A DNA stretch of 64,000 nucleotides, from assembly GCA_964527775.1 (NCBI GenBank), contig CAZGQS010000005.1, forward strand, positions 2,745 through 66,744, in the 5' to 3' direction. Position 1 is the first letter of the stretch. The number at the start of each line of letters is the position of its first letter. Below, one piece after another: positions 861-22,779 of this stretch. The notes beneath the pieces were generated by a model. That model was not told the DNA's origin. It ran no database searches and was given only the letters and a program-made list of their open reading frames with translations. This stretch comes from an uncultured Rhizobium sp. Lineage in GTDB: Bacteria; Bacteroidota; Bacteroidia; NS11-12g; UBA955. The translations under genes were made by a program, and so were the position numbers.

Positions 861-864
861 AGAA

Positions 865-1914: not shown

Positions 1915-2049
1915 AATTGTTGTTAACTTTAGTTGTACTAATTCTAATTTTTTGATTAAGATAAATACTTGTAAAAACTGAATAACAAGATAGCTGTATT
2001 ATTTATTTTAATTTTTGGGATACCTCTTTTTATAAGTGGCTTCAACTTT

Positions 2050-4075: not shown

Positions 4076-4076
4076 A

Positions 4077-7234: not shown

Positions 7235-7237
7235 GCG

Positions 7238-8328: not shown

Positions 8329-8331
8329 ATT

Positions 8332-8763
8332 TCAATAAGTATTCCAATGGTCATCTAAGTTGTTATTCCAATCTGCAGATAACACAGCTTCCGATAATTG
8401 GTAGTTTTTATTTAAGTCTTCCACTGCATTCAACTGGTTATTTAATTGGATGATGGAATTGATTAATTCAAGAGAAGCAGTTTTGAATGGTCTTGCACTT
8501 TCCGCAGTGATTTGTTCTATATTGCTTTTGAGGTATTGTATGATTGGAATTAAAACTCTTAATGATTGTGCTTGGATTTTTGCTTTTTCAGCGCTGAGGT
8601 ATTTAACTTTTGAAATGGAATCTTTAATTCTTGATGATGATGCATTTATTCGTGGAATTGAATTGTCATTGAAGCTATTCCATGCATTTTGAGAATGATT
8701 GCTGCTGGTGATTGTTCCGATGGATTCAATAATCTTTTGAATATCGCTGTTCAAAGAAATCAT
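8332..8763 (-). CDS. Putative cognate antitoxin of the MazF-like toxin (atypical, 143 aa)
   Basis: It ends 3 nt upstream of the toxin gene. The C-terminal tail LSEAVLSADWNNNLDDHWNTY resembles the acidic Trp-containing tails I recall on short Bacteroidota antitoxins. The N-terminal ~115 aa are helical and unassigned. Confidence 0.45.
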   Translation of the reverse strand: MISLNSDIQKIIESIGTITSSNHSQNAWNSFNDNSIPRINASSSRIKDSISKVKYLSAEKAKIQAQSLRVLIPIIQYLKSNIEQITAESARPFKTASLELINSIIQLNNQLNAVEDLNKNYQLSEAVLSADWNNNLDDHWNTY

Positions 8764-8824: not shown

Positions 8825-10600
8825 TTATTTGCGATTTTTGCAATATAAATTTACCGTTTGCCGCAATTCCTCAAAATTCCCGGGTTTCACAATTTGAACA
8901 AACTCTGAGGATTCAATTCCGCACGATTCCGTTGTGATCACCGGTATGCCCATCGATAGGGCTTTTAATATGAGTCGAGGCTGGTGTTCCACATACGTTG
9001 GATAAATGACCAGCCCAATCTTCGACCAATCTCCACTAAATTTTTCTGTATTCAGGCCATCCCAAAAATTGGGGCCTTCGAACATTTTACCTAAAACCAT
9101 GAGATTTAGGTTCAGTTCTTTTGCCAATTTTTTGATTTCGTAGGCGCCTTTTCGTCCAACGGCAGAAGCCGGGAATAATACCGTCAAAGGCCTATCCATG
9201 TGACTTGAAACATTTTCTTCTTCCTTTTGAAATGGTGGAATGTGCCAGTTGAGTTTAATCGATTTTCTATTGAAAATTTGCGCGATTTCTGTGTGAGGAG
9301 TGATGATTTTTCGGGACAGATTTAATCCGTGATTTTCCCATTTTATAATTTCATTTGGTGCTCTATAATCATTGAGAGTGTTACTGCTTCGATGGATGTT
9401 AAATGCAAAATCGAGTCGCTCGTGCAGTTTTTCTAGGGGAAGTCTATTCATTAAAACATCGAAAGTGCGTCCACCCAAAGCGCCAGAATGGACCAAATAG
9501 GGAAGGAGATTTTGGGATATTACCAAGTGGGTGGTCTCAATGGGAATCATCTTTGCCGCGGCTAAAGCAATTTTTGCGTCTAACTCAAGGCTCAAGCCGA
9601 AAGTATTATTTTGCTTCGGCGCAAATCGTAATTTTAATGCTCTGTAAATCCCTTGAAAAGTAGTTGATTTATGGTTGCCCTTTCTCAACGATGACCATGA
9701 ATATCTATGGGTTTTAATCAATGCATTTCGATTTAAAGGGACTATGAAAAAGTCGTTTTCGGAATGATTATTTTCAATAAAATCATCAAATTCCGGCCAC
9801 TTTTCATCTAAAATGAAGGTGGTTTTTGGGCTGATTGGAGCAATTGTTTTTTCCGACGGATGTTTAGAACACGATGTGTTTCCGCAAGAGTAACAGTCGT
9901 TTAATGATGAAGCTTGCTGCGTTGATAGATGTAATTCATTCGCAACTATATGGTTTGTTGTTGATCTGAATTTCACCATTAAATGTGTAGAATTCAGTTC
10001 AACATCTATTTTGAAGTCATGTGGGGCACTGAAACGCAGGTCTAAATAATTCCATTTAACGGTAGCGTCGCGGTCTTTTTCGGCGAGAGAGCCTTTGATG
10101 ATTTTGGTGTGTTTGTGTCGCTCAATGATTTCAAAGTTGGCTTTCAGGGCTGCATCATATAAGGCATTCGACAACTGGCAAAGTCCGCCGGCAACGGTGG
10201 GAACAATGCAACCTTCCCTGATTTCACGTCCCACGACAAAACCCTGCCCGAAGTTAGGATACCCAATGTGTTTCCAAAAACTGAAGGGTTGATTGGCTTG
10301 GACATGAAGGCCGTTGATTTTTCGAGCGGTGATGCGCAAATTTTCTATTTTTCCGGCAGTCAAAATCCAATTATTGGCGTTATCATGGGGATTCCATAGT
10401 TCGGTTTCGGAGGATGCAATGACTGTGGAAGAGCCATTGTTGTGGTGATCAACCGCAAATTTTGGGCAGGGAGATAGCGTATTTTGAATGAACCGCCTTA
10501 AAATTAGAGCTATTATTTTTAGTCTGAAGATGGAATCATTCCAGAAATTGTGTTTTTCACGGAGGATATTGGTTCGATTCAAGGTGAAAATAGAACGCAA
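8825..10600 (-). CDS. VanW-domain protein fused to a GT-B glycosyltransferase-like C-terminal region
   Basis: The VanW signature is QPFSFWKHIG...TVAGGLCQLSNALYDAALKA. A Cys cluster (CYSCGNTSC) follows. The C-terminal half carries GT1-like features (VLFPASAVGRKGAYE...LSMGIPVITTESCG). The start codon is TTG. Confidence 0.7.
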   Translation of the reverse strand: MRSIFTLNRTNILREKHNFWNDSIFRLKIIALILRRFIQNTLSPCPKFAVDHHNNGSSTVIASSETELWNPHDNANNWILTAGKIENLRITARKINGLHVQANQPFSFWKHIGYPNFGQGFVVGREIREGCIVPTVAGGLCQLSNALYDAALKANFEIIERHKHTKIIKGSLAEKDRDATVKWNYLDLRFSAPHDFKIDVELNSTHLMVKFRSTTNHIVANELHLSTQQASSLNDCYSCGNTSCSKHPSEKTIAPISPKTTFILDEKWPEFDDFIENNHSENDFFIVPLNRNALIKTHRYSWSSLRKGNHKSTTFQGIYRALKLRFAPKQNNTFGLSLELDAKIALAAAKMIPIETTHLVISQNLLPYLVHSGALGGRTFDVLMNRLPLEKLHERLDFAFNIHRSSNTLNDYRAPNEIIKWENHGLNLSRKIITPHTEIAQIFNRKSIKLNWHIPPFQKEEENVSSHMDRPLTVLFPASAVGRKGAYEIKKLAKELNLNLMVLGKMFEGPNFWDGLNTEKFSGDWSKIGLVIYPTYVEHQPRLILKALSMGIPVITTESCGIESSEFVQIVKPGNFEELRQTVNLYCKNRK

Positions 10601-10632: not shown

Positions 10633-11013
10633 TTATAAGATGGTTAACCCATAACTTTTGAATGACTTGTCTCGAGTTATTAATTTGAAATCATGATTTA
10701 AACACTGACTTATTATTATTCTATCAAATAGATCGGTATGGTGGTAAGGGAGATTTTGAAGCTTCAGGAAGTCTGAATTTTGAATAGGTAAAATTGCCCA
10801 GCCGCTTCGTTCGACGTAGAAGAATAAATCTGAAAGAGGTATGGGTAATGTTAATTTACCAATACTGATTTTGATGGTTAATTCCCAAATAGATGCTTGG
10901 CTGATAAAAATGTGATTTTGCGTGTCTTCGATGGTAGTTCTAATCTCATTGGTGATTTTGGGGTTCCCCTCAAGTATCCAAATTAATATATGAGTATCTA
11001 ATATTAGATTCAT
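10633..11013 (-). CDS. vapC: Type II toxin VapC (PIN-domain ribonuclease)
   Basis: The N-terminal LILDTHILIWIL motif is followed by later acidic PIN residues. It is 126 aa long and has a 4-nt ATGA overlap with the upstream gene. Confidence 0.9.
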   Translation of the reverse strand: MNLILDTHILIWILEGNPKITNEIRTTIEDTQNHIFISQASIWELTIKISIGKLTLPIPLSDLFFYVERSGWAILPIQNSDFLKLQNLPYHHTDLFDRIIISQCLNHDFKLITRDKSFKSYGLTIL

Positions 11014-11381
11014 GGGGTGTATTCTTTGAATTCATCTAAAGGAGCATCAAAATCTTCAGACATGAATATTTGCCCTTTTAATAATCCCCACAAACTTGGT
11101 CTTGTCTGACTAGAATTTTTATGAATCAGAAACTGAGTGAATTCAAGTACTTGAATTTGTTTTTGCAGAGGTAATTTTTCGAGTCCAGTGGTGACTTCTG
11201 TTGCAATACTGCTGACAGAGTTATAACTAGGTAAGGGCTCCGAAGCAATTTTTGTTTTATTGTAATTAATGAGTAAATCCTCAATTTTCTCGCTGAGACT
11301 TTTGCCTTCCTTTTTTGACCAGAATTTTGACTTTTGGTGTACGATTTCGTCAAGGGTAATGTTGATACGTTTTTTATTCAT
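11010..11381 (-). CDS. Antitoxin partner of VapC (RHH-like N-terminus plus DUF2281-like C-terminal tail)
   Basis: It is translationally coupled to vapC. The N-terminal INITLDEIVHQK region is ribbon-helix-helix-like. The C-terminal MSEDFDAPLDEFKEY matches the DUF2281-type tail as I recall it. Confidence 0.7.
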   Translation of the reverse strand: MNKKRINITLDEIVHQKSKFWSKKEGKSLSEKIEDLLINYNKTKIASEPLPSYNSVSSIATEVTTGLEKLPLQKQIQVLEFTQFLIHKNSSQTRPSLWGLLKGQIFMSEDFDAPLDEFKEYTP

Positions 11382-11423
11382 ACATCAAAAATAAATGATG
11401 TGTATCAATCTAAAAAATACACA

Positions 11424-13001
11424 CTATTGCTTTTGCGTTTTTTGCAAAACTAGGTAGTCGATTTTGCTGAAATGACGGGGGTCACGGGGTATTTTGAGCA
11501 ATTTAACATCGCCGTCAGGCAGTCTCAAGGAACGCAAATCTTCTTCTACAGGAGAGAAGCAACCGAGTTTTGGGTATGCCAAATGCTTGAATGAATCGCA
11601 GCGATTTAACTCTAAAAAGTAAACTAATTTGTTATTGATTTTCAATACAGTGCCCATAATTACTCCTGGAATATGTCGCAATTGATATTCCATCAAGAAG
11701 GGATATAAAGATTGACCTTGCCAATCAATGATTTGTTGACAACGACCCAGAAGTCGGAGGTTTCCATTGGCGTCAATGTAACCCGAGTCGCCGGTTCGGT
11801 GGAATAGTTTTTGGTCAATTAGGATTTTGGAACTTGCCATTTGTTCTGCTGCTTGGGGACCAAAATATTCTTTAACTACATGGTTTCCGGCAACGGCAAT
11901 TTCGCCAATCTGACCCGTTTCAAGTACCTTTTGTGATTGGATATCTAAAATTTTAACGACAGTACAAGATTCTATTTTTCCTACACAAAGTCCATCTTCA
12001 AAAGTGGAATCGGCGGTCTGAATGAGCGTGCGTGCATTAATGCTGGAAATAGGTTCTGCCTCGGTACTACCGTAAACAATTTCAACCCTGGAATTTGGAA
12101 ATGCGGTGAGCCATAATTTGGCCTCAGAAGGAAACACGGGCGCCCCACCGCTGAAGACTTCACGCACCGAACCTAGATTGGGTGAAATGTTTTGAGATAG
12201 GCTCTTAATGCACAGTTGATCAATGAAATAGGGTGATGCGATGATGCGATTGACGCGAAACTTCTCTATGGTCTTAATGATCTTTTGAGCCTTTAATTTA
12301 TAGGGCTTTTTGCTGCTCCAATTCACAATGACGCTGCTCACTCCTAGGCCCAAATTAATCATTAAAACAATGGGCAAAACAGGCATATCTACCGTGTCAT
12401 CACGGGTTTGTAAGGTATTTTGGAGTGCTAAAAATTGTTGATGTAGAATTTCGTGGCTGCGTTTGACCGCTTTGGGAATACCCGTGCTGCCGGTGGTGAA
12501 CGTGATTAGTGCGGTGTCATTTGAGGCATCAATAGAAACCGCATCGTGGTAGAGGCTTTTCTTGGCGTTCTTTATTTCTCGCGTGGTAATGCGGATGGGT
12601 ATTTGTCTGATATCCCTGATTAAATGTCCCAAGAAAGAAGCCAACGAAATACCAATAAATCCTTTGCAGTCAGCTATTTGGCAGGAAGTTTTTAAGCGGT
12701 TAAGTTTGGCCCATTCATCGATAAAAACGGCCGTGCAACCCATTTGAAACAAGGCCAATACGCTGACATATAAATCAATGCTCATGGGAACGAAGACCAA
12801 AACGCGGTCACCTGACTTTAGGCCTCGTTCTACAAATAATGAATGCGCGGCATCAATTTTATGTCGAAGTTCACCGAAGGTAATCTTTGAATGTTCATCG
12901 GCGATGGCCAGGCGATTGGAATTCATGATCGCGGCAGCATGGAAATGTTCCATGATATTGCCTTTAGTTAAAGTCTGTGCGATATGAATGATGTTAGACA
13001 T
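11424..13001 (-). CDS. AMP-dependent synthetase/ligase (ANL superfamily)
   Basis: Core motifs are ITFTTGSTGIPKAV, YGSTEAEP and HRTGDSGYIDANGNLRLLGR. The start lies 2 nt after the stop of the upstream gene. Confidence 0.9.
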   Translation of the reverse strand: MSNIIHIAQTLTKGNIMEHFHAAAIMNSNRLAIADEHSKITFGELRHKIDAAHSLFVERGLKSGDRVLVFVPMSIDLYVSVLALFQMGCTAVFIDEWAKLNRLKTSCQIADCKGFIGISLASFLGHLIRDIRQIPIRITTREIKNAKKSLYHDAVSIDASNDTALITFTTGSTGIPKAVKRSHEILHQQFLALQNTLQTRDDTVDMPVLPIVLMINLGLGVSSVIVNWSSKKPYKLKAQKIIKTIEKFRVNRIIASPYFIDQLCIKSLSQNISPNLGSVREVFSGGAPVFPSEAKLWLTAFPNSRVEIVYGSTEAEPISSINARTLIQTADSTFEDGLCVGKIESCTVVKILDIQSQKVLETGQIGEIAVAGNHVVKEYFGPQAAEQMASSKILIDQKLFHRTGDSGYIDANGNLRLLGRCQQIIDWQGQSLYPFLMEYQLRHIPGVIMGTVLKINNKLVYFLELNRCDSFKHLAYPKLGCFSPVEEDLRSLRLPDGDVKLLKIPRDPRHFSKIDYLVLQKTQKQ

Positions 13002-13003
13002 TG

Positions 13004-15220
13004 TTATAGATCTATTCCATACAGTTGGTATTCAGAAATGATTTCGGCTTCCAAAGATTCAGAGCACCTCAATGATGCTGCGTCTATATGCATGAATGAA
13101 TGGACTACTTGAAAAATGCCCAGTTTTTTGGCTTTTTGTTGCAAAATATCTGTCATCACCAATCCCAATCCACCAAGTCTAAAATCGGGTTTTCGAGCTA
13201 CTGTTTTCATGATGATGGAATTATTTTCAATGTCTAAGTAGGCAAAGACAAATCCCTGCAAATTCCGTTCCAATTCTGCTAGAAGTACCCATTCGGGATC
13301 AATTAAATGTTTGATTTCGTTGTATTTCAGTAAAAAGTCTTTCCAATGTATGGGTGTATAGTAGGGATTGTGTTGGAAGGCCACGAGGCTGAGCTCGTGG
13401 ATTTTGTGAAGTTCTTCTTCCCAATGATTCGGGTTTAAATGCCTGAATCTGATGCCTTGGATTTCCAATTGACTTTTTCGGTCATCCAATCTGGAAATGC
13501 TACCAGGAATTTCGTGCATGAGGGTACTTACATATCGTTCAATGGGTTTGAATCCCGCATTTTCAAAGAACTCAATCTGTTCAGGTTGGTAGGGGATATC
13601 CCCCAAAAAATTGCGATGAGAAGTGGTTTTTAAACGATAATCGTTCCAAGTACTTCCTCCGTTCATGGGGCCAATGATGCGTTTGTAGCCGTTTTGTTGG
13701 GACCAAATTATCAGTTTTCGGAGGTCGGTGATCGGTGATCGGAGGTCGGTGATCGGTGATCGGAGGTCGGAGGTCGGTGATCGGAGGTCGGAGGTCGGTG
13801 ATCGGAGGTCGGTGGTCAGTACACGGCTATCAGAGTTCGGCTGACGGCTTTCGGCTGGTGGCTGTAGGTTGAAAGCTGAGGGCTGATTGCAGTTGACTGA
13901 TAGGGCTAATGTTTCTAAATTTAGGGGCCAGATATGGATGGTGATCGGTGATCGGAGATCGGTGGTCGGTGATTGGTGATCGGTGATCGGTGATCGGTGA
14001 TCGGTGGACAGTACACGGCTATCAGTGTTCGGCTGACGGCTGTCGGCTGATGGCTGATGGTTGCCCGCTGAAAGCTGATCGCTTTCGGCTGATGGCTGAA
14101 GGCTGAAAGCTGACGACTGATCGTTATAATCAATGACAATGGTATTGTAGAAGTAACCGTCGTCTTGAGCGCGGAGTTCCGACATGAGGTCTGATTGTTC
14201 TGTTAGTGTGGGAACTACCTGTGAACATCTTCGGGTGACCATCAAATTCCAGTAAGCCAAACGTCCCCCGGGAAAAAGACCGGAAGATAGTTTGGTGGCG
14301 GCCTCGCTGAATTCAGATTCATTCATATATTCGAAGATGTTGCTCAGGTTCATGGCGTGGAAATGTCCGTAATGAGAAATAGCGTCCTCGGCGAAACCGT
14401 GAAATAATGAAATTCTATGGATTCTGGCTTTGATGAATTCGTAGTTATTTGGTTGAAGGTAGTGGGGCAAAAGTTCGCCGAAACTGCCCGTTAGATTGTA
14501 GCGAAGAAAGGGGTTCTGCTGCGCGCTGACAGAACTTAAGTGAGTTTCAGCTTGATTCAATATGAAATCTGAAACGGGTATCTTCACTTGTTTTAAGAAT
14601 TCGGGGTCGCGGCCCAATCTTCCCATGACGGTGCGACTGAAAAACAATTTGAACAATCCGCGCCAACGCCAAGTGTTCCATTTGTTTAGAAAGAATTGGC
14701 GCTGTTCATGGGCCGATTTGGGAGCGAATAATTCAGCGATTCTATTTTTGTTGTGAATCAGCGGGAGGACTTTTTGGGAAAAAATTTGGAAGTACTTTTC
14801 GAATTTTCCATGATGAATGATGCCTGTTGAATTCCATTTAGACAGCGTTTTTGAGAAGTAATTGGCTGCATCTTTAGAAAGATGGGGAACTAATATGTTG
14901 AATAGATCCGCACGATTTGAGGCGGGTGAATATCCCAAGAAAGCAAGAACCTCGGAGTAAGTAAGGTGCTCAATGGCCCTAATTTTCAGCTCGGTTAAAT
15001 AGAGTTGAACAGGGTTGATGTCGGCGGCAACAATCAGTTTTGGGTCGGCCATCAACAGACTGAAACAGTTGTCACCTGCGGAGGCAATGCTTAACACCTG
15101 ATCGTGTTTCTGAATGTTGAGCGCTTTGAGCAAGACTTTGGGGTCTTCCCAAACCGTGGCATAACGAATGAAGTCAAACGATGCTGATTGTGAAATGCTC
15201 AATCTTCTAGTTCCCTCCAT
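13004..15220 (-). CDS. BtaA-like (DUF3419, SAM-dependent 3-amino-3-carboxypropyl transferase-like) N-domain joined to a GNAT-like C-domain through heptamer-repeat-encoded linkers
   Basis: The N-terminal ~365 aa carry FIRYATVWEDPKV and SIASAGDNCFS (BtaA-like). Residues ~366-500 are 7-aa repeats (DLRSPIT, DHRSPIT, SRQPSA). The C-terminal part has IIGPMNGGSTWNDYRL and an acyltransferase-like fold pattern. Confidence 0.7.
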   Translation of the reverse strand: MEGTRRLSISQSASFDFIRYATVWEDPKVLLKALNIQKHDQVLSIASAGDNCFSLLMADPKLIVAADINPVQLYLTELKIRAIEHLTYSEVLAFLGYSPASNRADLFNILVPHLSKDAANYFSKTLSKWNSTGIIHHGKFEKYFQIFSQKVLPLIHNKNRIAELFAPKSAHEQRQFFLNKWNTWRWRGLFKLFFSRTVMGRLGRDPEFLKQVKIPVSDFILNQAETHLSSVSAQQNPFLRYNLTGSFGELLPHYLQPNNYEFIKARIHRISLFHGFAEDAISHYGHFHAMNLSNIFEYMNESEFSEAATKLSSGLFPGGRLAYWNLMVTRRCSQVVPTLTEQSDLMSELRAQDDGYFYNTIVIDYNDQSSAFSLQPSAESDQLSAGNHQPSADSRQPNTDSRVLSTDHRSPITDHQSPTTDLRSPITIHIWPLNLETLALSVNCNQPSAFNLQPPAESRQPNSDSRVLTTDLRSPTSDLRSPTSDLRSPITDLRSPITDLRKLIIWSQQNGYKRIIGPMNGGSTWNDYRLKTTSHRNFLGDIPYQPEQIEFFENAGFKPIERYVSTLMHEIPGSISRLDDRKSQLEIQGIRFRHLNPNHWEEELHKIHELSLVAFQHNPYYTPIHWKDFLLKYNEIKHLIDPEWVLLAELERNLQGFVFAYLDIENNSIIMKTVARKPDFRLGGLGLVMTDILQQKAKKLGIFQVVHSFMHIDAASLRCSESLEAEIISEYQLYGIDL
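13719..13887. repeat. Heptanucleotide-phased tandem repeat block A1 (GGTGATC/GGAGGTC units, then GGCTGAC-type units)
   Basis: The period-7 repeats can be read directly. The block shares a near-identical ~47-nt core (13811-13857) with block A2 (14003-14049). Confidence 0.9.
13939..14122. repeat. Heptanucleotide-phased tandem repeat block A2 (GGTGATC x ~9, then GGCTGAT/GGCTGAA/AGCTGAx units)
   Basis: The period-7 repeats can be read directly. It is separated from A1 by ~50 nt of unique sequence that encodes IHIWPLNLETLALSVN on the minus strand. Confidence 0.9.
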
Positions 15221-17730
15221 GAATTCTCTAACACAATTTTGATTTTACCGGTGGCACCGTCCATTTCAACGATGTCGCCAGTTTCAAGTTGATTCAATAA
15301 ATTGGTGATACCCACAATGCAAGGTTTTCCTAATTCTCGTGAAACAATGGCGCTGTGAGATAGGAGGGAGCCTCTTTCTACCAAGATTCCAGATGCCGTT
15401 GGAAACAACATCACCCAACCTGGGTCGGTGGATGAGGTTACTAAAATGTCTCCATTTAAATCGCTCACTTCTCGAGGATCTATTACAATTCTCACCTTTG
15501 CTTTGACGATGCCAGGACAACACCCAATGCCTTTGAGATCAGCACCTTCCAACGAACTTTTGGTTTCTTGAATGAAAGAGTTTGCATGGTAGACGTTCCC
15601 ATAAGTTCTGATTCTTTCGGAGGTGTTTTGGGACTCGTAACCTTGGTATTTCACCTTTCTGAATTCTATGAGATCGGCAATTTCTGGCGTAACCGATGTT
15701 CCCTTGATGAAGTCAAAAATTTCTTCTTGGGTTAGGTAAAAAATGTCACGCGGGTGTTTGATGATGCCTTCGCCGTAAAATTGATTTCCGATGGCCAAAA
15801 ACAGTTCTCTTATTTTTCCAAATCCGCGGGTTCGTTCAAACCTGAGGTTTTCGCGCGCGCTCACCATTTCACGGGTTTTGCCCAAAACATAGTTGAAAAT
15901 CCGTCTTTTAATGGGTTTATCCCTGAAGGTTTCTTTAATAATGTCTTCGCCTTGTTTTCTGAGGTCTTTATGCGAAGGTTGGCCGTAAGATGGGTCGTTG
16001 GTTGAACTGTAATTCGCTTGATATCTCACGTGTGACTGAATCAAAGCTGCGAACATTGCAGGATCTTGTCTGTAGGTTATGGTTTCAAGTTTGAGTTCTC
16101 CCACGGTGCGGTCGCCAAATTTATCAATGTAGTATTTGAATTCTTTTAAAACGTTTTCAAAGTTTCTGTCTGTTTCAAAGGCTTTTAAAATCTCCTCGGG
16201 AGTGGCCTTAACTATAAATTCAATCCAATTCCAGTGCTTGCTAAGTTTGTCAACAATTTTTTCAATTTGATGGATGGGCTCTACTGAAATGATATCTCCA
16301 GCACTACTCAATAATTGATTGTGAATGCCGTCGGGGAGTTGATATTTTTCGGCCAACTTTTGAGTAAACCCAAAGTAAATCATGGCATAAAAATCATTCA
16401 CCAATGGAGCTTTCCATTTTTTCAAAAGGGTTTGTTCGAACCTTAAAATCAATTCCATCAACTCATGTGAATCTTTTTCGTGGAGCGGAATTTGGTTGAA
16501 TTCATCCATGACTTTTTGGAAGTCGGCTTGAAAAGTCACCCTCATTTTAGGAAGTGCCCTCAAGTTGCTGATCATCGATTTAATCATGATCAACACACGC
16601 GTTCTTTCGGTCCATTTGCTTCTTTTGGGAAGGTCTTTCAGCTCAAATCGCTCTTTCACGCCCATCATTTTCTCCATGAATTCGGCGTTGAGATGATATC
16701 CGGGCAATAAGGCTAGAGCTTTGTACCACGATAGAAGATTGTAATAAACTCGGCCGTTGATAAGACCCAGCATATTGGCAAAAATTCCCGCATTTTTGGT
16801 TAAATCTGCTTCGCTCACACCCAACAATCTGCAAAGTTGGATGTACACTGATTCATACATCTTAATGATAAAACTAAAGGTAAGGGGAGTGGTGACTCCC
16901 GGATACGATTCGATGATGTTGGAATTGTCCCACAGTATCATCTCCGATGATTGATCAGACGTCAGATTCAGCGTGGTTACGGGTCTGCTTTGAAGTAAGT
17001 AAAATTGCTCATCCTCCCAGCAAAATTCGATGTCTTGCGGTTTTTTGTAAAGAGCCTTCAGGTCGCTTAGAACCTTGCAAATATGTTTAAGCTGATTGGG
17101 TGTGAGTTTTGTTTCGGGGGATGCTTGGAAGTCAGAATCTATCAAATTTCTGGTTGTTGAATCCAAAATGTAGGTATCAGAATTCAACTCTCCGCTAACC
17201 AGTCCCTCACCCAAACCGCACACAGCCGATATCACGATTTCTTTGCGTTTGCCGTTGACGGGATTCATTCCAAAGGCAACACCTGAAACCGCAGGGTTGA
17301 GCATGCGCTGAATCACAATTCCCATTTTTTGTGGGGGTTCAATACCGTGTTCGTGGCAATAAGCAACCACTTCAGGTCGTTTGAGCGAGTTCCATACATT
17401 GGTGATGGCCTGATTCACTTGGTCCCATTCAACATTTAGTTGAGTCAGAAATTGACCGGCAAAACTCTGACTTCCGCTGTCTTCGCCCAACGCCGATGAT
17501 CTTACCGAAACGAATTTGGGACTGCCCAAATAGTCTTTGATTTCTTGAAGTTCAACCTCAGACAGTGGTTTTGAAATATCAATCTGTTGAGCATTGTACA
17601 CAACAAATTCAGGAACTTTGAATCCATAGTCTGAAAGATGCAACAGGTTGAATCCCTTCCCCCCACTGAATATGGGATTGGATTTTACATCGAATGGACT
17701 TTTATATAAAATGAACTTTACGAAATCCAT
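15199..17730 (-). CDS. PEP-utilizing-family dikinase-like enzyme (ATP-grasp N-domain, large central domain, C-terminal swivel phosphohistidine domain; no PEP/pyruvate TIM-barrel domain)
   Basis: The N-terminal GGKGFNLLHL...VPEFVV is a PPDK_N-type ATP-grasp motif. The C-terminal TSSTDPGWVMLFPTASGILVERGSLLSHSAIVSRELGKPCIVG is the mobile His domain. I chose the start at ATG 17730 (MDFVKF); the track start is 17781. Confidence 0.85.
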   Translation of the reverse strand: MDFVKFILYKSPFDVKSNPIFSGGKGFNLLHLSDYGFKVPEFVVYNAQQIDISKPLSEVELQEIKDYLGSPKFVSVRSSALGEDSGSQSFAGQFLTQLNVEWDQVNQAITNVWNSLKRPEVVAYCHEHGIEPPQKMGIVIQRMLNPAVSGVAFGMNPVNGKRKEIVISAVCGLGEGLVSGELNSDTYILDSTTRNLIDSDFQASPETKLTPNQLKHICKVLSDLKALYKKPQDIEFCWEDEQFYLLQSRPVTTLNLTSDQSSEMILWDNSNIIESYPGVTTPLTFSFIIKMYESVYIQLCRLLGVSEADLTKNAGIFANMLGLINGRVYYNLLSWYKALALLPGYHLNAEFMEKMMGVKERFELKDLPKRSKWTERTRVLIMIKSMISNLRALPKMRVTFQADFQKVMDEFNQIPLHEKDSHELMELILRFEQTLLKKWKAPLVNDFYAMIYFGFTQKLAEKYQLPDGIHNQLLSSAGDIISVEPIHQIEKIVDKLSKHWNWIEFIVKATPEEILKAFETDRNFENVLKEFKYYIDKFGDRTVGELKLETITYRQDPAMFAALIQSHVRYQANYSSTNDPSYGQPSHKDLRKQGEDIIKETFRDKPIKRRIFNYVLGKTREMVSARENLRFERTRGFGKIRELFLAIGNQFYGEGIIKHPRDIFYLTQEEIFDFIKGTSVTPEIADLIEFRKVKYQGYESQNTSERIRTYGNVYHANSFIQETKSSLEGADLKGIGCCPGIVKAKVRIVIDPREVSDLNGDILVTSSTDPGWVMLFPTASGILVERGSLLSHSAIVSRELGKPCIVGITNLLNQLETGDIVEMDGATGKIKIVLENSWRELED

Positions 17731-18644
17731 TGCCAGGCGGTGAGTATTCCTCCGAGGGTTAGGTACATGAGAATGGTCCATAGTCCGCTGGCAATTTCAA
17801 CGCCTTTGGCGGTTTTAGAACTCTTGTATTTAAAATGTAGCGCTGCTGATATTAGGGTCAAGACAAAATAGATAAGCAATGCGGCAAACACACTACTGGG
17901 TAATTTTGCATAATCTGCTGCGAGGATGGCCAGTATCAATGTCCCCAGAAGAACAAACATCCAAAGCCAAAGGGCTTTGCTGAGACCCAACATGGCTGAG
18001 TAAGTTTGAACACCGGGTTTTTCATCGTGGGGAGCACGGATTTTACGTCCCAATTCCAACACAATGCCGTTCATGAAAGACACCCCGAAGAAGTATAACA
18101 GTCCGAAAGGAGCTGGATTATCAGATAGTTTCCAATCATATCCTGATGCATAAACATCAATCAAAGGAATGATGAGCATGTGGGATGTGACGTACCAAAA
18201 CTGGTGGTTTTTGAGCCAATCTTTGATAAAGAATTCTTTGCCCATGAGCAGTAAATAACCAATTGCAAGGGCATAGAGGGGAAGCATATTAGGAAATGTC
18301 AACGCGCTGATGATGATTTGAGCGGCAAAGACAAACCAAGCAATGTTTCGGAGTTCTTTTAGAGAAATGAGTCCTCGAGGAACGGGCAGTTCTGAGCGGT
18401 AGAGGGCATCGTCTTCGGCGTCTTTGTGTTCATCAAAAACACGAAGCAAAAAGAAGAGGGTTACCGTGTTGAAAATGCAGACCAAAAACTTTTCCCAGCC
18501 AATGAATCCGGGGAGTTGTTGCGACAATCTAGAATAGCCTATGGCGCTGAAACTGAAGGCAGAGATGAGGATTCCGTGGGAGTGTAGAGGGAATCTTTCA
18601 TTGAGGTATTGCCAAAATCTTTGGTAGAGTGGGGTTTGGGACAT
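17718..18644 (-). CDS. UbiA-superfamily prenyltransferase (integral membrane)
   Basis: About 8-9 TM segments. The first Asp-rich motif is LLRVFDEHKDAEDD. A second motif-like region is APHDEKPGVQTYS. Confidence 0.85.
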   Translation of the reverse strand: MSQTPLYQRFWQYLNERFPLHSHGILISAFSFSAIGYSRLSQQLPGFIGWEKFLVCIFNTVTLFFLLRVFDEHKDAEDDALYRSELPVPRGLISLKELRNIAWFVFAAQIIISALTFPNMLPLYALAIGYLLLMGKEFFIKDWLKNHQFWYVTSHMLIIPLIDVYASGYDWKLSDNPAPFGLLYFFGVSFMNGIVLELGRKIRAPHDEKPGVQTYSAMLGLSKALWLWMFVLLGTLILAILAADYAKLPSSVFAALLIYFVLTLISAALHFKYKSSKTAKGVEIASGLWTILMYLTLGGILTAWQWIS

Positions 18645-18762
18645 GGGATAGGTTCTGAAAGGTTCGAATGTACGCGGATTTTGAAGAGGTTCAAAAAGGA
18701 AAAATGCAAAAAGTGAAGTTGTAAATTACGGATTATCCTTAAAAATTAAAGATTTAGGTGGA

Positions 18763-18770
18763 TATATTTG
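18763..18770 (+). promoter_or_regulatory. Candidate Bacteroidota -7 promoter box (TATATTTG)
   Basis: It matches the TAnnTTTG consensus and lies 10 nt upstream of ATG 18781. Confidence 0.35.
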
Positions 18771-18780
18771 CCTTCCATTG

Positions 18781-21060
18781 ATGAAAGTTAGTGAATTGAA
18801 TGTGCCATTTGTTCCCGGTAGAGGTTTTAATACCTCTTCGGCGGTTCAAATGCGTTTGGATTATCTTAGAAAAAGAGAGATTTCTCTTCCGTCTCTAGAA
18901 ACACATCAGTTGCCCTTAGACGAAGTAAGAAATAATATAGAATCATTTATAGGAAGCGTAGAGATTCCTGTGGGCTTAGTTGGCCCACTGTTATACCATG
19001 GTGAAGATGGTCAGGATGAATGGGTTCATGCTCCCGCCGCCACCTTGGAAGGTGCTTTGGTTTACAGCATGAACAGAGGTGCAAAGTTGATCTCAAAAAG
19101 CGGCGGTTTTACCGCTCATTTTCATTATCAGAAAATGCTGCGGGCGCCCATGTTTATATTGGGAAACCCAGATGTAGTCCAGAAGTTATCTGAATTTATT
19201 TCATCGAATTTTGATGCCATTAAAGAGGTTGCCGAGTCTTATTCCAATCACGGAAAGCTTATTGAAGTTCAGTGCGAACCCATTGATAATCATTTAAATG
19301 CTTATTTTTATTATGTGACAGGAGATGCCGCAGGACAGAATTTAACCACTACTTGTACATGGCACGCGCTTCAATTTATTGCTGAAAATTTTGACGGGGA
19401 GATTTTAGATTATGTCATAGAGGGCAATGGCGCATCCGATAAAAAAATATCCCTCAGAAACATAGAAAAGGGAAGAGGCAGTAAAGTGTCAGCTGAAGTT
19501 GTAGTTGATGATGCGATGATAGAAGAAGTTTTGAGAACTACTTCTGATCAAATCATGAGGTATTTTGAGCCGTCTAAGCGCATTGCATTGCAACACGGTA
19601 TGGTTGGATATAGCATCAATGCGGCCAATGCCATTGCCGCTATTTTTGCTGCTACGGGACAAGACCTCGCGTGCATTCATGAGTCGGCGACGGCATTTTT
19701 AGACATCGAAAGGCTTGAAAATGGGCTTAAATTCTCTTTGCTTTTGCCTAATTTGGTCATTGGAACTGTGGGTGGCGGCACTCATTTGGCTAAGCAATCG
19801 GATGCTTTGAATTTGATGGGTTGCAAGGGCTCAGGTAAGGTCAAGCGCTTCGCTGAACTCATTGCTGGGTTCACTCTAGCCCTTGAAATATCTACTTTTG
19901 GAGCCATAGTGAGCGGCGAGTTTGCTAAGTCACACGAGAAGTTGGGAAGAAATAAGCCTCAAAGTTGGTTGCTAAAATCTGAAGTTAATCTTGATTTCGT
20001 AAAGTCAATTTTGGTTGCTAAAGATGCTCCTTCGGTTGAATTTCTTGAATGGCAAAGTCATTTGTACTTTGACAATGGCATCATCACCCAACTTTCTCAA
20101 AAAGTGAGTAAAAAGCTTCAAGGTTATTACTTGTTGAAGGTCAAAGAGTCTAGTAACGGATTGGTGCTTTTGAAGTCGCGTCCCACCAGCGACGAAGTCA
20201 TCAAAGGGCTGCACTTGATTGCGGTTTCGGTTGACGGTCAACTCGCTGATTTATTGTTGTTTTGTCGAGAGTATTTGGAGTTTCACCAATGCCATTTGAA
20301 GGAATTGGCAATCAATAGGTTTTTGTTTTCCGGGGGATATGCTTACGCTCCCAAATATTATGGTGATAAAATTGACAGTCAGCGCGAGATTTTTTTGCTC
20401 GCTCAAGAATATATTTACCCTCAGAATACCCGTTTACTGAACTCGGAAGATCAGCCCAATTTATGGCAATCAGTTGATGTCATAAAATGCATCGACGCCA
20501 TAAACGAGTTTCACATCAAAACGTTTGGGTTAGATGGTATTGAAGATGTTCAGATTCCATTGCAACAACCCTGGCTCGCAAGCTCTTTCTACCAGCGTTT
20601 ACAAGAGATCTTGGTTCAAACTTGGGATGGTGACCATTTGGAAGTCTTGAAAAGTCTCAACATTGCTTCGTTGGATGAAGAATTTTCAACCCTAAAAATG
20701 CCTACCTGTTTTATTCACAACGACTTTAATCCACGAAACATCATGATTCTTAAAAATGGTAATCCCGTAATTTACGATTGGGAATTAACCGTGAGAGACA
20801 TACCGCAGCGTGATATTATGGAGTTGTTGTGTTTTGTTTTAAAAGATGATGAATCACCCGAACCATATATGCGTTATCACTGTAAACTAATAAACGCAGA
20901 TTGGGCAGAATATCAACGCGCTGCAAAATATGCCTTAAAGAGTTTGATTCTAACTAGATTTGCGTTGTACGAAGTATCGGGAATTGTAGCGAAGTATGAG
21001 TTCTCGAAGCGCGTGATGGGGAAGGCGTTGAATTTGACGGCTTCGCCGGAGACTTTTTGA
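18781..21060 (+). CDS. HMG-CoA-reductase-like (class I type) catalytic domain fused to an APH/choline-kinase-like phosphotransferase domain
   Basis: HMGR-like motifs are ESFIGSVEIPVGLVGPL, TLEGALVYS, GDAAGQN, ASDKK, ATGQDLA, GTVGGGT and KSHEKLGRN. Kinase motifs are FIHNDFNPRNIMI and IYDWELT. The track start is 18778 (TTG), followed immediately by ATG. Confidence 0.8.
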   Translation: MKVSELNVPFVPGRGFNTSSAVQMRLDYLRKREISLPSLETHQLPLDEVRNNIESFIGSVEIPVGLVGPLLYHGEDGQDEWVHAPAATLEGALVYSMNRGAKLISKSGGFTAHFHYQKMLRAPMFILGNPDVVQKLSEFISSNFDAIKEVAESYSNHGKLIEVQCEPIDNHLNAYFYYVTGDAAGQNLTTTCTWHALQFIAENFDGEILDYVIEGNGASDKKISLRNIEKGRGSKVSAEVVVDDAMIEEVLRTTSDQIMRYFEPSKRIALQHGMVGYSINAANAIAAIFAATGQDLACIHESATAFLDIERLENGLKFSLLLPNLVIGTVGGGTHLAKQSDALNLMGCKGSGKVKRFAELIAGFTLALEISTFGAIVSGEFAKSHEKLGRNKPQSWLLKSEVNLDFVKSILVAKDAPSVEFLEWQSHLYFDNGIITQLSQKVSKKLQGYYLLKVKESSNGLVLLKSRPTSDEVIKGLHLIAVSVDGQLADLLLFCREYLEFHQCHLKELAINRFLFSGGYAYAPKYYGDKIDSQREIFLLAQEYIYPQNTRLLNSEDQPNLWQSVDVIKCIDAINEFHIKTFGLDGIEDVQIPLQQPWLASSFYQRLQEILVQTWDGDHLEVLKSLNIASLDEEFSTLKMPTCFIHNDFNPRNIMILKNGNPVIYDWELTVRDIPQRDIMELLCFVLKDDESPEPYMRYHCKLINADWAEYQRAAKYALKSLILTRFALYEVSGIVAKYEFSKRVMGKALNLTASPETF

Positions 21061-21166: not shown

Positions 21167-21934
21167 TCACGGTAACTTAGCAATCATCCTATTATACCGT
21201 TCCTGGTATTTGTTGCCGGTTTTTCCGCCGAGCTTTTTGTGAAGTTCGTGGATGTGTTGAACGCGTTTGCCTGGGTCTGGGTGAGTGCTTAAGAATGCGG
21301 GGATGTTTTGTCCGCCGGAGGCGGACATCCGCTCAAAGAATCCGGCTGCACCAGTGGCTTGATAGGATGTGTTGTAGAGCCATTTAACTGAATATTCATC
21401 TGATTCGAGTTCGTCTTTACGTCCGTATTTCAGAAATGCGAGACCGGCTGCAATGTTTGTTAGATCATGATATTGAGTATCTATGAATAGGTGGGTAATG
21501 AGGGTGATTCCGTATTGACGGGTTAAGGCATCGGTGCTGTGTCTTTTTGCAGCGTGGGCGATTTCATGTCCCATAACACCAGCAAGCTCGTCTTCGGATT
21601 GAAGGTATTTAAGTATGCCTGTGTAGAAATAAATGTAACCACCGGGAGTACAAAAGGCGTTGAGGGTGGGGTCATTGATGATCCTAATACGCCATGGAAA
21701 GCGAGCTTCGTGATCAATTTCGTTGTTCTTGAAGATGCTGTCCCTGATGGAATACAAATAGCGGTATATGACGCCATTTGTGGTACTATCGAGAATGTTA
21801 TTTTTATTGTCTTTGTCAATTTGGGCAGCGGCTTGCGCACCAAAGTTGAGGTCAGATGAAACGGGAAAAACGTTTAGGCTCTTAGAAAATGTGGAGCAAC
21901 CCACGAGAATGAAGGCGGCTAATAATGGACGCAT
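21167..21934 (-). CDS. M48-family zinc metallopeptidase, lipoprotein
   Basis: HExxH occurs in GVMGHEIAHAAKRH, with a downstream ELESDEYS. The signal peptide has a lipobox (ILVGCS). Confidence 0.9.
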   Translation of the reverse strand: MRPLLAAFILVGCSTFSKSLNVFPVSSDLNFGAQAAAQIDKDNKNNILDSTTNGVIYRYLYSIRDSIFKNNEIDHEARFPWRIRIINDPTLNAFCTPGGYIYFYTGILKYLQSEDELAGVMGHEIAHAAKRHSTDALTRQYGITLITHLFIDTQYHDLTNIAAGLAFLKYGRKDELESDEYSVKWLYNTSYQATGAAGFFERMSASGGQNIPAFLSTHPDPGKRVQHIHELHKKLGGKTGNKYQERYNRMIAKLP

Positions 21935-22004
21935 GGTTCAAAATTAAACTAAAATTCATTATTTATCAGACCAACTCTTGACAAAAACATCCCCCGCAAG
22001 GGGT

Positions 22005-22012
22005 TAAATTTG
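22005..22012 (+). promoter_or_regulatory. Candidate -7 promoter box (TAAATTTG)
   Basis: It matches TAnnTTTG and lies 8 nt upstream of ATG 22021. A TTG at 21978-21980 could serve as the -33 element. Confidence 0.4.
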
Positions 22013-22020
22013 CAGCACAA

Positions 22021-22779
22021 ATGAACACGTTTATTTCAAAACTTCAAGGTGATATTCAGGCGCAGCGTGCCCAACTTCTTCAGCATCCCGTTTATCAAAG
22101 CATCAATGACCTAAATGGGTTGATTGAGTTTTCGCAAAAACATGTTTTTGCGGTGTGGGATTTTATGAGTTTATTGAAGGCCTTGCAGCGCGATTTGACT
22201 TGCGTAGATCTTCCTTGGGTTCCGGTGGGAACGGCAGATACTCGCTATTTGATCAACGAAATTGTTTTGGGAGAAGAATCAGATGTAGATGAAAATGGGG
22301 TTCGTATTTCTCATTTTGAATTGTACATCAAAGCCATGAATCAAATGGGAGCCAATTTTCAGCCCATATTTGAATTGATTGATTCTTTAAAATCAGAACA
22401 TATTTTCTCTGCTATAGACAAGGCTAACTTACACCCTAAGGTAAAATCATTCTTACATTTCACTTTTGATGTTGCCTTAAATGCACCCACTCACGTGAAA
22501 GCGGCTGTTTTTACTTTCGGACGTGAAGATTTGATTCCAGATATGTTCGTAGAAATTCTACAACAGATTTATAAAGATCACCCAGAGAAGGTCTCTACTT
22601 TTAAATATTACATCGAAAGACACATCGAAGTTGACGGAGATCACCACTCTCACCTAGCTCTGGAAATGGTATCTCAACTTTGTGGAGATGACGAATCAAA
22701 ATGGGAAGAAGCTTCTCGTTATTCTGTTGAATCTTTGAAGCAGCGCTCGTTGCTTTGGGATGCGATTATTGATAGATAA
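22021..22779 (+). CDS. DUF3050-family (heme-oxygenase-like fold, MgoB-like) protein
   Basis: The sequence HPVYQSI...KHVFAVWDFMSLLKALQ matches what I recall of the DUF3050 family. The protein appears all-helical. Confidence 0.55.
   Translation: MNTFISKLQGDIQAQRAQLLQHPVYQSINDLNGLIEFSQKHVFAVWDFMSLLKALQRDLTCVDLPWVPVGTADTRYLINEIVLGEESDVDENGVRISHFELYIKAMNQMGANFQPIFELIDSLKSEHIFSAIDKANLHPKVKSFLHFTFDVALNAPTHVKAAVFTFGREDLIPDMFVEILQQIYKDHPEKVSTFKYYIERHIEVDGDHHSHLALEMVSQLCGDDESKWEEASRYSVESLKQRSLLWDAIIDR

Follow-up and report, generated by a model that had tools for sequence, protein, structure and literature searches.

Non-isoprenoid alkyl glycerol ethers are widely used biomarkers that bacteria are known to make by only two routes, ElbD/AGPS and Ger; recent reviews on how bacteria form alkylglycerols name no enzymes but ElbD and Ger, and anticipate that more will be found. 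Fatty alcohols can be supplied by FcrA, a monophyletic group of homologues of class-I 3-hydroxy-3-methylglutaryl-CoA (HMG-CoA) reductase (HMGR), which is defined by three substitutions: Ser684 by Glu, the lysine that binds the HMG carboxylate by a small residue, and Leu862 by a bulky residue (PMC11948995, ISME J 2025). Enzymes of this group have been characterised from Natronomonas pharaonis and Ca. Promineifilum breve; Pb-FcrA reduces C8–C18 acyl-CoA to fatty alcohols, not HMG-CoA, and FcrA supplies the fatty alcohols for wax esters in haloarchaea and some bacteria (PMC11948995). FcrA is often found without WS/DGAT, and the same study only speculates that it may feed ether lipids via PlsC-like or AGPS enzymes; the words ‘kinase’ and ‘phosphotransferase’ are absent from its main text (PMC11948995). 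Here we describe a cluster of five genes at positions 11,424–21,060 of a 64,000-nucleotide stretch (hereafter the window) of contig CAZGQS010000005.1, from assembly GCA_964527775.1, deposited as an uncultured Rhizobium sp. and placed by GTDB in the Bacteroidota. Judged by its residues, the ‘HMG-CoA reductase’ of this cluster is actually an FcrA-family fatty acyl-CoA reductase fused to a kinase, and the other four genes encode an ANL-superfamily ligase, a BtaA-like/GNAT protein, a swivel-histidine dikinase and a UbiA-superfamily transferase. The cluster as a whole is best explained as a membrane-lipid biosynthesis unit built on fatty alcohol formation, a reading to which we give an even chance.

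The reductase domain (18,844–19,950, plus strand) matches Pfam HMG-CoA_red with 321 bits (E = 1.6e-95). The four catalytic residues of HMGR (E54, K221, D295 and H385) are intact, are invariant in the family of FcrA proteins that are fused to an APH-fold kinase (FcrA–APH), and align to the catalytic positions of the class-I structures 6hr7 and 8ecg; the positions tested correspond to human Glu559, Lys691, Asp767 and His866, all of which are kept. The score against the HMGR model TIGR00533 is 261 bits for a cut-off of 442, which leaves the protein outside canonical class-I HMGR. All three FcrA signatures are present, with Ser684 replaced by Glu214, Lys735 by Ser265 and Leu862 by Phe381, and in the alignment to solved class-I HMGRs the motif TGDAMGMN reads TGDAAGQN. 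The HMG carboxylate is held by a salt bridge to Lys735 (PMC9500038); this residue is printed as ‘Lys795’ in PMC11948995, and the assignment to FcrA rests on the signature residues as that paper defines them. This pattern extends to essentially all of the 80 genome loci retrieved: residue 684 is acidic (Glu or Asp) in 78 of them and Ser in the other two, Lys occurs at 735 in none, and residue 862 is aromatic, as Phe (63 loci) or Trp (16 loci), in the 79 that reach this part of the alignment; the GQN motif was part of the search pattern for these loci, and its presence across them is by construction. Given that the domain falls in a characterised family, its predicted substrate is most likely an ordinary fatty acyl-CoA.

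An APH-fold (aminoglycoside/choline-kinase-like) kinase domain (20,344–20,904, plus strand; Pfam APH, 37 bits, E = 3e-9) is fused to the reductase, with the catalytic motifs HNDFNPRN and DWE intact. The fusion, which joins reduction to phosphorylation, is widespread: both domains are present in all 120 of the best homologues, mostly from Bacteroidota, and FcrA–APH proteins make up more than 1,000 protein clusters and occur in about 45 genome loci. Full-length matches are also found in Gammaproteobacteria, Rickettsiales, Bdellovibrionales, Desulfobacterota, Myxococcaceae, Paenibacillus, Streptomyces, Entotheonella and Planctomycetota. An APH-fold kinase that acts on a lipid alcohol has been described, as the kinase domain of ACAD10 is a 1-O-alkylglycerol kinase (PMC13596139).

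The ANL-superfamily gene (11,424–13,001, minus strand; Pfam AMP-binding, 154 bits, E = 5e-45) is predicted to encode an acyl-CoA ligase, for which the thiol acceptor may be CoA or a carrier. Its core motifs TGSTGIPK, YGSTE and RTGD are intact, and its best NCBIfam match is PRK09274, ‘fatty acid CoA ligase family’, at 307 bits, below the equivalog cut-off. Orthologues with 33–42% identity close the same operon in Sphingobacterium, Dyadobacter, Saprospiraceae and Longimicrobiaceae. Activation is joined to reduction in tri-domain AMP-binding/PP-binding/FcrA proteins of Ozemobacter and Riflebacteria (L047:7808–11035 and L060:8126–11140). These proteins correspond to an adenylation–thiolation–reductase enzyme with an HMGR homologue in place of the usual SDR-type reductase; genes for a Formyl_trans_N protein and a UbiA protein adjoin them.

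We mapped the domains of the window onto the 80 loci. FcrA, the dikinase and UbiA occur within 10 kb in 29 loci, and the latter two are the commonest partners of FcrA. This trio spans Bacteroidota, Gemmatimonadota, Pseudomonadota (gamma lineages and Rickettsiales), Bdellovibrionota, Desulfobacterota, Myxococcota, Bacillota and Riflebacteria. All five families occur together in 11 loci from five phyla, in Bacteroidota (Sphingobacterium, Dyadobacter and Saprospiraceae), Gemmatimonadota, Riflebacteria, Desulfomonilia and Rickettsiales, and independent gene calls on a Fluviicola taffensis-like contig gave one more five-family locus. DUF3419, the family of the BtaA-like domain, is accompanied by the dikinase and UbiA in all complete operons. 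The recurrence of the same families in many phyla indicates that the cluster did not arise by chance, and the five genes can be regarded as a co-conserved unit.

The cluster of the window is a mosaic. Its UbiA, dikinase, DUF3419 and ANL proteins are nearest to those of operons without APH in Sphingobacterium, Dyadobacter and related Bacteroidota (~40–60% identity), and its FcrA–APH protein is nearest to the fused type, the FcrA domain being only ~37% identical to the unfused FcrAs of the APH-less operons. Two apparent DUF3419/FcrA/APH ‘triple fusions’ of 1,310 amino acids (L022 and L026) were rejected as artefacts of open reading frame (ORF) calling: the DUF3419 match of L022 lies in another frame, and the extra N-terminal region of L026 has no domain match.

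The genes that accompany the cluster in relatives belong to membrane-lipid metabolism, not to secondary metabolism. Related clusters carry a CDP-alcohol phosphatidyltransferase (CDP-OH_P_transf) and a CdsA-type CTP_transf_1 protein; other partners are ICMT/PEMT methyltransferases, AurF-like diiron enzymes, PlsC-like acyltransferases and desaturases, and proteobacterial versions include MMPL and LolA-like exporter genes. A CarS-like gene lies directly 3′ of FcrA–APH in Kordia, Flavobacterium gilvum and Saprospiraceae; the CarS family acts on lipid phosphate. The cluster of F. gilvum (L083:8001–16622) comprises FcrA–APH, the CarS-like gene, the dikinase, an unknown protein of 237 amino acids, a methyltransferase, a PlsC-like acyltransferase and a fatty acid desaturase, and Kordia jejudonensis has a minimal module (L082:8001–11839) of FcrA–APH, CarS-like, CDP-OH_P_transf and GtrA-like genes. 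These cluster types suggest that several different lipids are made from the same alkyl phosphate. The window itself encodes a fatty acid desaturase (PF00487, E = 1e-32; 24,713–25,810, minus strand) 3.6 kb downstream of the cluster, which may be functionally linked to it, given the desaturases in FcrA–APH clusters of the F. gilvum type. In the Bacteroidales-type loci L005 (13559–18860), L009 and L011, genes for an NTP_transf_5 nucleotidyltransferase and two thymidylate-kinase-like P-loop kinases lie 5′ of the dikinase gene; this set is near FcrA–APH and without UbiA, and hints at nucleotide-activated intermediates.

Operons that lack the APH domain offer a possible counterpart to it. Between their DUF3419 and GNAT genes lies a gene for an uncharacterised membrane protein of ~225 amino acids, here called c6 (for example, L067:17194–17874, L072:15726–16505 and L081:11086–11757), with the motifs TRKxVH, DPxAA, KTxxGS and DNxxxP, of which TRK..H, DP.A..G, KT..G..FF and DN...P are invariant. 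Eight loci have it, all of them APH-less, and it is absent from every APH-fused locus, which fits c6 and the APH domain as alternative lipid-alcohol kinases. The family assignment of c6 is weak: the matches to CTP_transf_1 are below threshold and occur in two of six members, searches of NCBIfam and the PDB gave no match, and ‘CTP-dependent lipid kinase’ is accordingly a hint only. CarS-like, CdsA-like, CDP-OH_P_transf, c6, MMPL and LolA-like genes were found nowhere in the 64-kb window.

The dikinase (15,199–17,730, minus strand) consists of an ATP-grasp domain, a central domain and a C-terminal swivel-histidine domain. The only Pfam matches are PPDK_N (PF01326, 161 bits, residues 79–277) and PEP-utilizers (PF00391, 82 bits, residues 777–845), and the swivel histidine motif LLSHSAIVSRELG is intact. 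The best PDB matches, 5hv2 and 5fbs, are covered over most of their length; both were deposited as ‘phosphoenolpyruvate synthase’, and we take them to be the rifampin phosphotransferase (RPH) of Listeria. An Rph_4th domain is found in the dikinase orthologues of L081 and L083. NCBIfam scores are far from equivalog level, at 238 bits for RIF_Ptrans_rph (cut-off 999) and 253 for PigC (cut-off 1300), with 253–265 bits against 1300–1350 over the PigC/RedH models. We rejected phosphoenolpyruvate (PEP) synthase/pyruvate phosphate dikinase, as TIGR01418 gives 184 bits for a cut-off of 740 and no match to PF02896 (PEP-utilizers_C), the PEP/pyruvate-binding barrel, was found. The predicted architecture is of the rifampin-phosphotransferase type and not that of PEP synthase.

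The UbiA-superfamily intramembrane transferase (17,718–18,644, minus strand) scores 43.8 bits against Pfam UbiA (PF01040; cut-off 34.2). Its first Asp-rich motif, R68xxD71xxK74D75xxxD79, is invariant in eight orthologues. At the second, the DxxxD-type motif of the superfamily is absent and is replaced by ExxRKxRxPxxE (E197..R200-K201..E208), in which only E197 and E208 are acidic and which aligns to the KDxxDxxGD motif of digeranylgeranylglyceryl phosphate (DGGGP) synthase. A profile of eight cluster UbiAs matched archaeal DGGGP synthase best in the PDB (6m31, E = 1.8e-7), followed by chlorophyll synthase, and no other UbiA-family structure; a single-sequence search of the PDB with the window protein gave no match, so DGGGP synthase is reached by the profile only. 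On this comparison, the cluster UbiA appears closest to archaeal DGGGP synthase.

The remaining gene encodes a protein of 738 amino acids with two catalytic parts. Its N-terminal part (14,219–15,181, minus strand) is a BtaA-like domain resembling S-adenosylmethionine (SAM)-dependent 3-amino-3-carboxypropyl transferases, with 229.5 bits to DUF3419 (PF11899; cut-off 28.2, E = 1e-67); residues 14–334 correspond to profile positions 5–339 of 385, the full-length match expected of BtaA. The closest of 4,032 homologues are stand-alone Bacteroidota proteins of ~363 amino acids with 52–57% identity. No methyltransferase gene that could be BtaB was found by Pfam within 11,424–21,060. The C-terminal part (13,004–13,720, minus strand) has no GNAT match in Pfam in the window protein itself, but homologues do (P0121, and a 340-amino-acid protein of L081 with Acetyltransf_6). 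In an AlphaFold2 model of this part (pLDDT 81), Foldseek gave the tandem GNAT MAB_4324 (E = 5e-11, TM 0.6), mycothiol synthase MshD and VipF as best matches, and the C-domains of FemX and MprF as weaker ones (E = 1e-6 to 1e-7). A word-indexed search returned only 4 relatives of this domain, and an exhaustive search exposed a large family of 1,220 representatives at E ≤ 1e-30, mostly stand-alone proteins of ~330 amino acids. The model thus assigns the C-terminal third of the protein a probable tandem-GNAT fold from a large uncharacterised family. Its acyl donor may be acyl-CoA or acyl-ACP, with an aminoacyl-tRNA donor, as in FemX and MprF, as the alternative. The BtaA-like/GNAT fusion is found in the window, in the relative L001 and in the diverged protein P0389 (57% and 47% identical over the two domains). 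In another protein, P0265 (787 amino acids), the GNAT-like family is fused to a different, unidentified N-terminal region of ~480 amino acids that is not DUF3419.

The two domains are joined by a low-complexity linker of ~160 amino acids (13,706–14,188, minus strand) made of 7/21-nucleotide tandem repeats, with Tandem Repeats Finder arrays at 13,718–13,817, 13,940–14,006 and 14,030–14,123. The units are imperfect 7-nucleotide repeats (TCGGAGG, GGTGATC and CGGCTGA) in 21-nucleotide periods that keep the frame, and the translation includes TDLRSPITDLRSP and repeats of TDLRSPI. The linker holds the operon position at which APH-less operons carry c6. L001, which is 94% identical, has the same fusion with a shorter linker. 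As gain or loss of one 7-nucleotide unit would shift the frame and detach the GNAT domain, the linker could be a variable or switchable junction.

Four of the ORFs run on the minus strand, from UbiA (17,718–18,644, 308 amino acids) as the first gene through the dikinase (longest ORF 15,199–17,781, 860 amino acids) and the BtaA-like/GNAT protein (13,004–15,220) to the ANL ligase (11,424–13,001, 525 amino acids) as the last, and FcrA–APH diverges from them on the plus strand (18,778–21,060; 760 amino acids from a TTG start, 759 from the ATG at 18,781). The ANL and BtaA-like/GNAT genes are separated by 2 nucleotides (13,002–13,003), and the BtaA-like/GNAT and dikinase genes overlap by 22 (15,199–15,220). 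The overlap of the dikinase and UbiA genes is 13 nucleotides with the in-frame ATG at 17,730 and 64 with the longest-ORF start at 17,781; a start at 17,730 fits the same short junction in L001. The divergent intergenic region (18,645–18,780) has 136 nucleotides if the ATG at 18,781 is used. This layout, gap and overlaps included, is as in the initial annotation with those two start codons, and the identities that it had proposed from motifs hold under profile assignment: every product has Pfam domains above the gathering score (AMP-binding, DUF3419, PPDK_N with PEP-utilizers, UbiA, and HMG-CoA_red with APH), the GNAT part being identified by its model and homologues. All NCBIfam matches are below threshold, so no cluster protein is an equivalog of a named enzyme. 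The flanking genes are unrelated by Pfam (a PIN/antitoxin pair, a VanW protein, an M48 peptidase and a DUF3050 protein), so the unit is the five genes and ends at the edges first given for it, 11,424 and 21,060.

Scans for tRNAs and Rfam families gave no match in or near the cluster. In the divergent region, a Bacteroidota-type TAnnTTTG box (TATATTTG) at 18,763–18,770, 11 nucleotides 5′ of the ATG at 18,781, is a candidate promoter element. This assignment is only suggestive, because the window has no more Bacteroidota −7 motifs than expected (75 against 77) and σ70-type sites are at chance level (26 found, 22.7 expected).

We propose that the ANL ligase would convert a fatty acid to fatty acyl-CoA, which the FcrA domain would reduce with NADPH to a fatty alcohol and the APH-fold kinase would phosphorylate to an alkyl phosphate; we consider these three steps probable. 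The RPH-like dikinase would then use its swivel histidine to relay the β-phosphate from ATP to the alkyl phosphate, and the DGGGP-synthase-like UbiA would use the resulting alkyl diphosphate to alkylate a hydroxyl, most plausibly of a glycerol-based acceptor, to give an ether. We hold this diphosphate/ether step tentatively, at somewhat less than even confidence. Finally, the BtaA-like domain would place the SAM-derived 3-amino-3-carboxypropyl (homoserine) group on a free lipid hydroxyl and the fused GNAT-like domain would N-acylate the new amine, a head-group reading that could equally well be right or wrong. The predicted product is a phosphorus-free, ether-linked lipid of the N-acyl-homoserine type; in related clusters, the head-group module is replaced by a CarS-like or CdsA-like enzyme and a CDP-alcohol phosphatidyltransferase, from which phospholipid head groups would result.

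The initial annotation had set out a similar scheme, of which activation, reduction, phosphorylation and the BtaA-like/GNAT pairing are supported. The activation of an acid and its four-electron reduction to an alcohol by the HMGR-like domain are now backed by experiment on the FcrA family, by the three signatures in the window protein and by the existence of AMP-binding/PP-binding/FcrA proteins. Phosphorylation by the fused kinase fits the widespread fusion, the CarS-like gene directly after it and the restriction of c6 to APH-less operons, and the BtaA-like/GNAT pairing is borne out by two independent fusions and the GNAT fold. The product, which had been left as an unusual membrane lipid or a prenylated metabolite, is now read as probably an ether-linked membrane lipid. 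The CarS-like, CdsA-like and CDP-OH_P_transf proteins of relatives are from the families that make up the remainder of the archaeal ether-lipid pathway, which supports the diphosphate and ether steps together with the frequency of dikinase and UbiA as partners of FcrA, the RPH-type architecture of the dikinase and the profile match of UbiA to DGGGP synthase, and the MMPL and LolA-like genes of proteobacterial versions support the membrane-lipid nature of the product. More broadly, several bacterial phyla may have an archaeal-style, non-isoprenoid ether-lipid route via fatty alkyl diphosphates and a DGGGP-synthase-like UbiA, with the first phosphate from an APH-fold or CTP_transf_1-like kinase and the second from the swivel-histidine dikinase; this route in its entirety we regard as possible but on balance unlikely.

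Several observations weigh against the proposed pathway. To our knowledge, no RPH-type dikinase forms a diphosphate; in the characterised relatives of this dikinase, the phosphate goes to a hydroxyl or carbonyl oxygen. The diphosphates that UbiA enzymes normally ionise are allylic, and a saturated alkyl diphosphate is not, so the ether step would have to proceed by SN2 chemistry or start from an unsaturated (2-enoyl-derived) substrate; the replacement of the second Asp-rich motif by basic residues likewise means that donor or acceptor may be unusual. In Kordia-type loci, neither dikinase nor UbiA lies within 8–10 kb of FcrA–APH, and the alkyl phosphate is therefore apparently usable without the diphosphate and UbiA steps. 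In L022, L031 and L062 (two of them on short contigs), DUF3419 is directly beside FcrA with no UbiA detected nearby, which fits action of the BtaA-like enzyme directly on the fatty alcohol. The APH domain could phosphorylate a head-group alcohol instead, as choline and homoserine kinases share its fold. Operon structure is deduced from gene spacing only, and every chemical step assigned to the source organism from sequence.

Some of these points favour other products. The BtaA-like domain might act directly on the FcrA alcohol and the GNAT domain N-acylate the amine, to give a two-tailed N-acyl-O-alkyl-homoserine, with kinase, dikinase and UbiA serving decoration or a second product. Besides the three loci in which DUF3419 adjoins FcrA or FcrA–APH without UbiA, this route is favoured by the recurrence of the BtaA-like/GNAT fusion and by BtaA chemistry, which requires only a primary lipid hydroxyl. 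However, three of the five conserved enzymes have no role in it, complete operons always pair DUF3419 with dikinase and UbiA, and a kinase fused to FcrA argues for phosphorylation of the alcohol rather than its use in free form; we judge this route clearly unlikely. Quite improbable, in our view, is a pathway in which the alkyl phosphate is either a CDP-activated intermediate of single-chain alkyl-phospho-X lipids or the acceptor of prenyl diphosphate or phosphoribosyl pyrophosphate (PRPP) via UbiA, the dikinase acting on another hydroxyl. In its favour are the minimal module of Kordia and the CarS-like and CDP-OH_P_transf pair that follows FcrA–APH in many loci. The UbiA superfamily includes an enzyme that uses PRPP and a lipid phosphate (decaprenyl-phosphate phosphoribosyltransferase), and the atypical second motif of the window UbiA is also consistent with this reading. 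Set against this, the 64-kb window has no CarS-like, CdsA-like or CDP-OH_P_transf gene, and the UbiA profile is nearest to DGGGP synthase, with only chlorophyll synthase matched besides.

Readings outside membrane lipids fare worse. A soluble, prenylated specialised metabolite, for which the dikinase would be an ATP-dependent condensing enzyme of the PigC/RedH type and UbiA an aromatic or terpenoid prenyltransferase, would account for the PigC/RedH matches and for FcrA–APH in genomes of Streptomyces and Entotheonella, but those scores are far under the cut-offs, the cluster has no polyketide synthase, non-ribosomal peptide synthetase, terpene synthase or aromatic-precursor genes, and the partners in relatives are phospholipid enzymes and lipid exporters, which makes it very unlikely. 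A genuine mevalonate/isoprenoid module, with a true HMGR, a non-orthologous mevalonate kinase and a UbiA that uses the resulting prenyl diphosphate, would fit the strong Pfam and TIGR00533 similarity and the intact catalytic residues. It conflicts with the sub-threshold TIGR00533 score, with the changes at positions 735 (Lys to Ser), 684 (Ser to Glu) and 862 (Leu to Phe), and with the failure of an FcrA family member to reduce HMG-CoA (PMC11948995). Moreover, no HMG-CoA synthase, diphosphomevalonate decarboxylase or prenyl-diphosphate synthase gene lies in the cluster, and the ANL ligase and the ANL–carrier–FcrA fusions have no role in the mevalonate pathway; we consider such a module extremely unlikely. 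The same can be said of the supply of wax esters or storage lipids, although FcrA was first identified in this role and plays it in haloarchaea and some bacteria: the genes that accompany FcrA here encode kinases and intramembrane transferases, WS/DGAT is often absent where FcrA is present (PMC11948995), and no WS/DGAT-like gene turned up among the families conserved around FcrA, for which no dedicated search was made.

Other loci of the window flank the lipid cluster. The M48 peptidase and DUF3050 genes beyond its right edge follow each other directly in the window (21,167–22,779) and are ~4 kb apart in L001 (12,422–17,895), a difference in spacing that points to an insertion or deletion just outside the cluster. 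On the other side, a protein of 591 amino acids (8,825–10,600, minus strand) has an unusual pairing of a VanW domain (residues 84–209) with a weak C-terminal region like glycosyltransferase group 1. Two toxin–antitoxin-like pairs (7,993–8,763 and 10,633–11,381) lie between the lipid cluster and a polysaccharide locus: one is a PemK/MazF toxin with an upstream ORF of 143 amino acids, and the other a PIN-domain toxin with a DUF2281/DUF6364 antitoxin-like protein. A TAnnTTTG box (11,386–11,393, minus strand) is situated just upstream of this second pair. The polysaccharide export/biosynthesis locus (21–7,987) encodes an SLBB/Wza-like protein, a weak Wzz match, two GT4-type glycosyltransferases and one of GT2, and includes three consecutive ORFs of ~350 amino acids without a Pfam match (2,050–5,141). 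Its low GC content (29–34%) suggests a horizontally exchanged island.

In literature searches, we found no paper that describes the five-gene cluster or assigns the set to a pathway; the lipocone paper contains the same terms in unrelated contexts only. The initial statement that no characterised pathway uses these enzymes together thus stands for the set, but not for the HMGR-like component, which now belongs to the characterised FcrA family. That reductase family has been known since 2025, and the fusion to a kinase and the link to the dikinase, UbiA, BtaA-like and GNAT proteins are in none of the papers found. If the proposed pathway is correct, it would be a third, mechanistically distinct bacterial route to ether lipids, with the first saturated alkyl diphosphate as a UbiA donor and the first RPH-type dikinase to form a diphosphate. 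The activities predicted are those of a kinase for fatty alcohols, a dikinase for lipid phosphates and a BtaA-like/GNAT pair for lipids of the N-acyl-homoserine type. Cultured carriers include Sphingobacterium, Dyadobacter, Fluviicola, Kordia, Flavobacterium gilvum, Phaeodactylibacter and Zooshikella, among them Sphingobacterium chuzhouense KCTC 42746, Dyadobacter psychrotolerans and Fluviicola taffensis. The cluster also bears on the role of FcrA outside wax-ester producers, through its physical link to kinases, a DGGGP-synthase-like transferase and, in relatives, CarS-like proteins and CDP-alcohol transferases.

Compared with the characterised FcrAs, the window enzyme has the same class-I HMGR fold, Glu/Lys/Asp/His residues and three pocket substitutions, and the frequent location of characterised FcrA genes beside a FadD-type ligase gene resembles its association with the ANL gene. 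Unlike them, it carries a C-terminal APH-fold kinase and no N-terminal alkyl-carrier (Lad) domain, and is encoded with a dikinase, UbiA, BtaA-like and GNAT proteins rather than with WS/DGAT. The dikinase shares with RPH and PigC/RedH the three-part build of ATP-grasp domain, substrate-binding middle and C-terminal swivel histidine, but is far below the cut-offs for both and is found in a lipid operon, not in a resistance or pigment context. With the BtaA/BtaB system for the betaine lipid DGTS, the window shares the DUF3419/BtaA domain, which presumably uses SAM to place a 3-amino-3-carboxypropyl group on a lipid hydroxyl. Its acceptor may be a lipid other than diacylglycerol, the one used in that system, and a GNAT-like domain is fused in place of the N-methyltransferase BtaB, which the cluster lacks; N-acylation is therefore predicted rather than N-trimethylation.

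ElbD/AGPS of myxobacteria and Ger/PlsA of anaerobes, like the proposed pathway, bring fatty-acid-derived alkyl chains into polar lipids, and in ElbD, too, a reductase is coupled to an ANL domain and a carrier. The enzymes come from entirely different families: ElbD has an SDR-type fatty acyl-CoA reductase and a PlsC-like domain, Ger reduces an existing ester, and neither system has a kinase, dikinase or UbiA. Phytol salvage in plants and cyanobacteria (VTE5 phytol kinase, VTE6 phytyl-phosphate kinase and VTE2 homogentisate phytyltransferase) follows the common logic of alcohol to monophosphate to diphosphate to UbiA-family transferase, and c6 of the APH-less relatives shows weak similarity to CTP_transf_1, the family of VTE5 and dolichol kinase. 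The kinases of the cluster differ, being an APH-fold domain and a swivel-histidine dikinase, and its alcohol is probably a non-allylic fatty alcohol. The archaeal ether-lipid pathway has the same three membrane-enzyme families (DGGGP synthase, CarS and CDP-alcohol phosphatidyltransferase) that the cluster family assembles around FcrA. The window cluster has neither CarS nor the CDP-alcohol transferase, the second Asp-rich motif of its UbiA is unlike that of DGGGP synthase, and no GGGPS/PcrB homologue was seen. The hydrocarbon of the archaeal pathway is an isoprenoid diphosphate from a prenyl synthase, whereas that of the cluster would be a fatty acid reduced by FcrA; with respect to the lipid divide, bacteria may thus use archaeal enzyme families on fatty-acid-derived chains.

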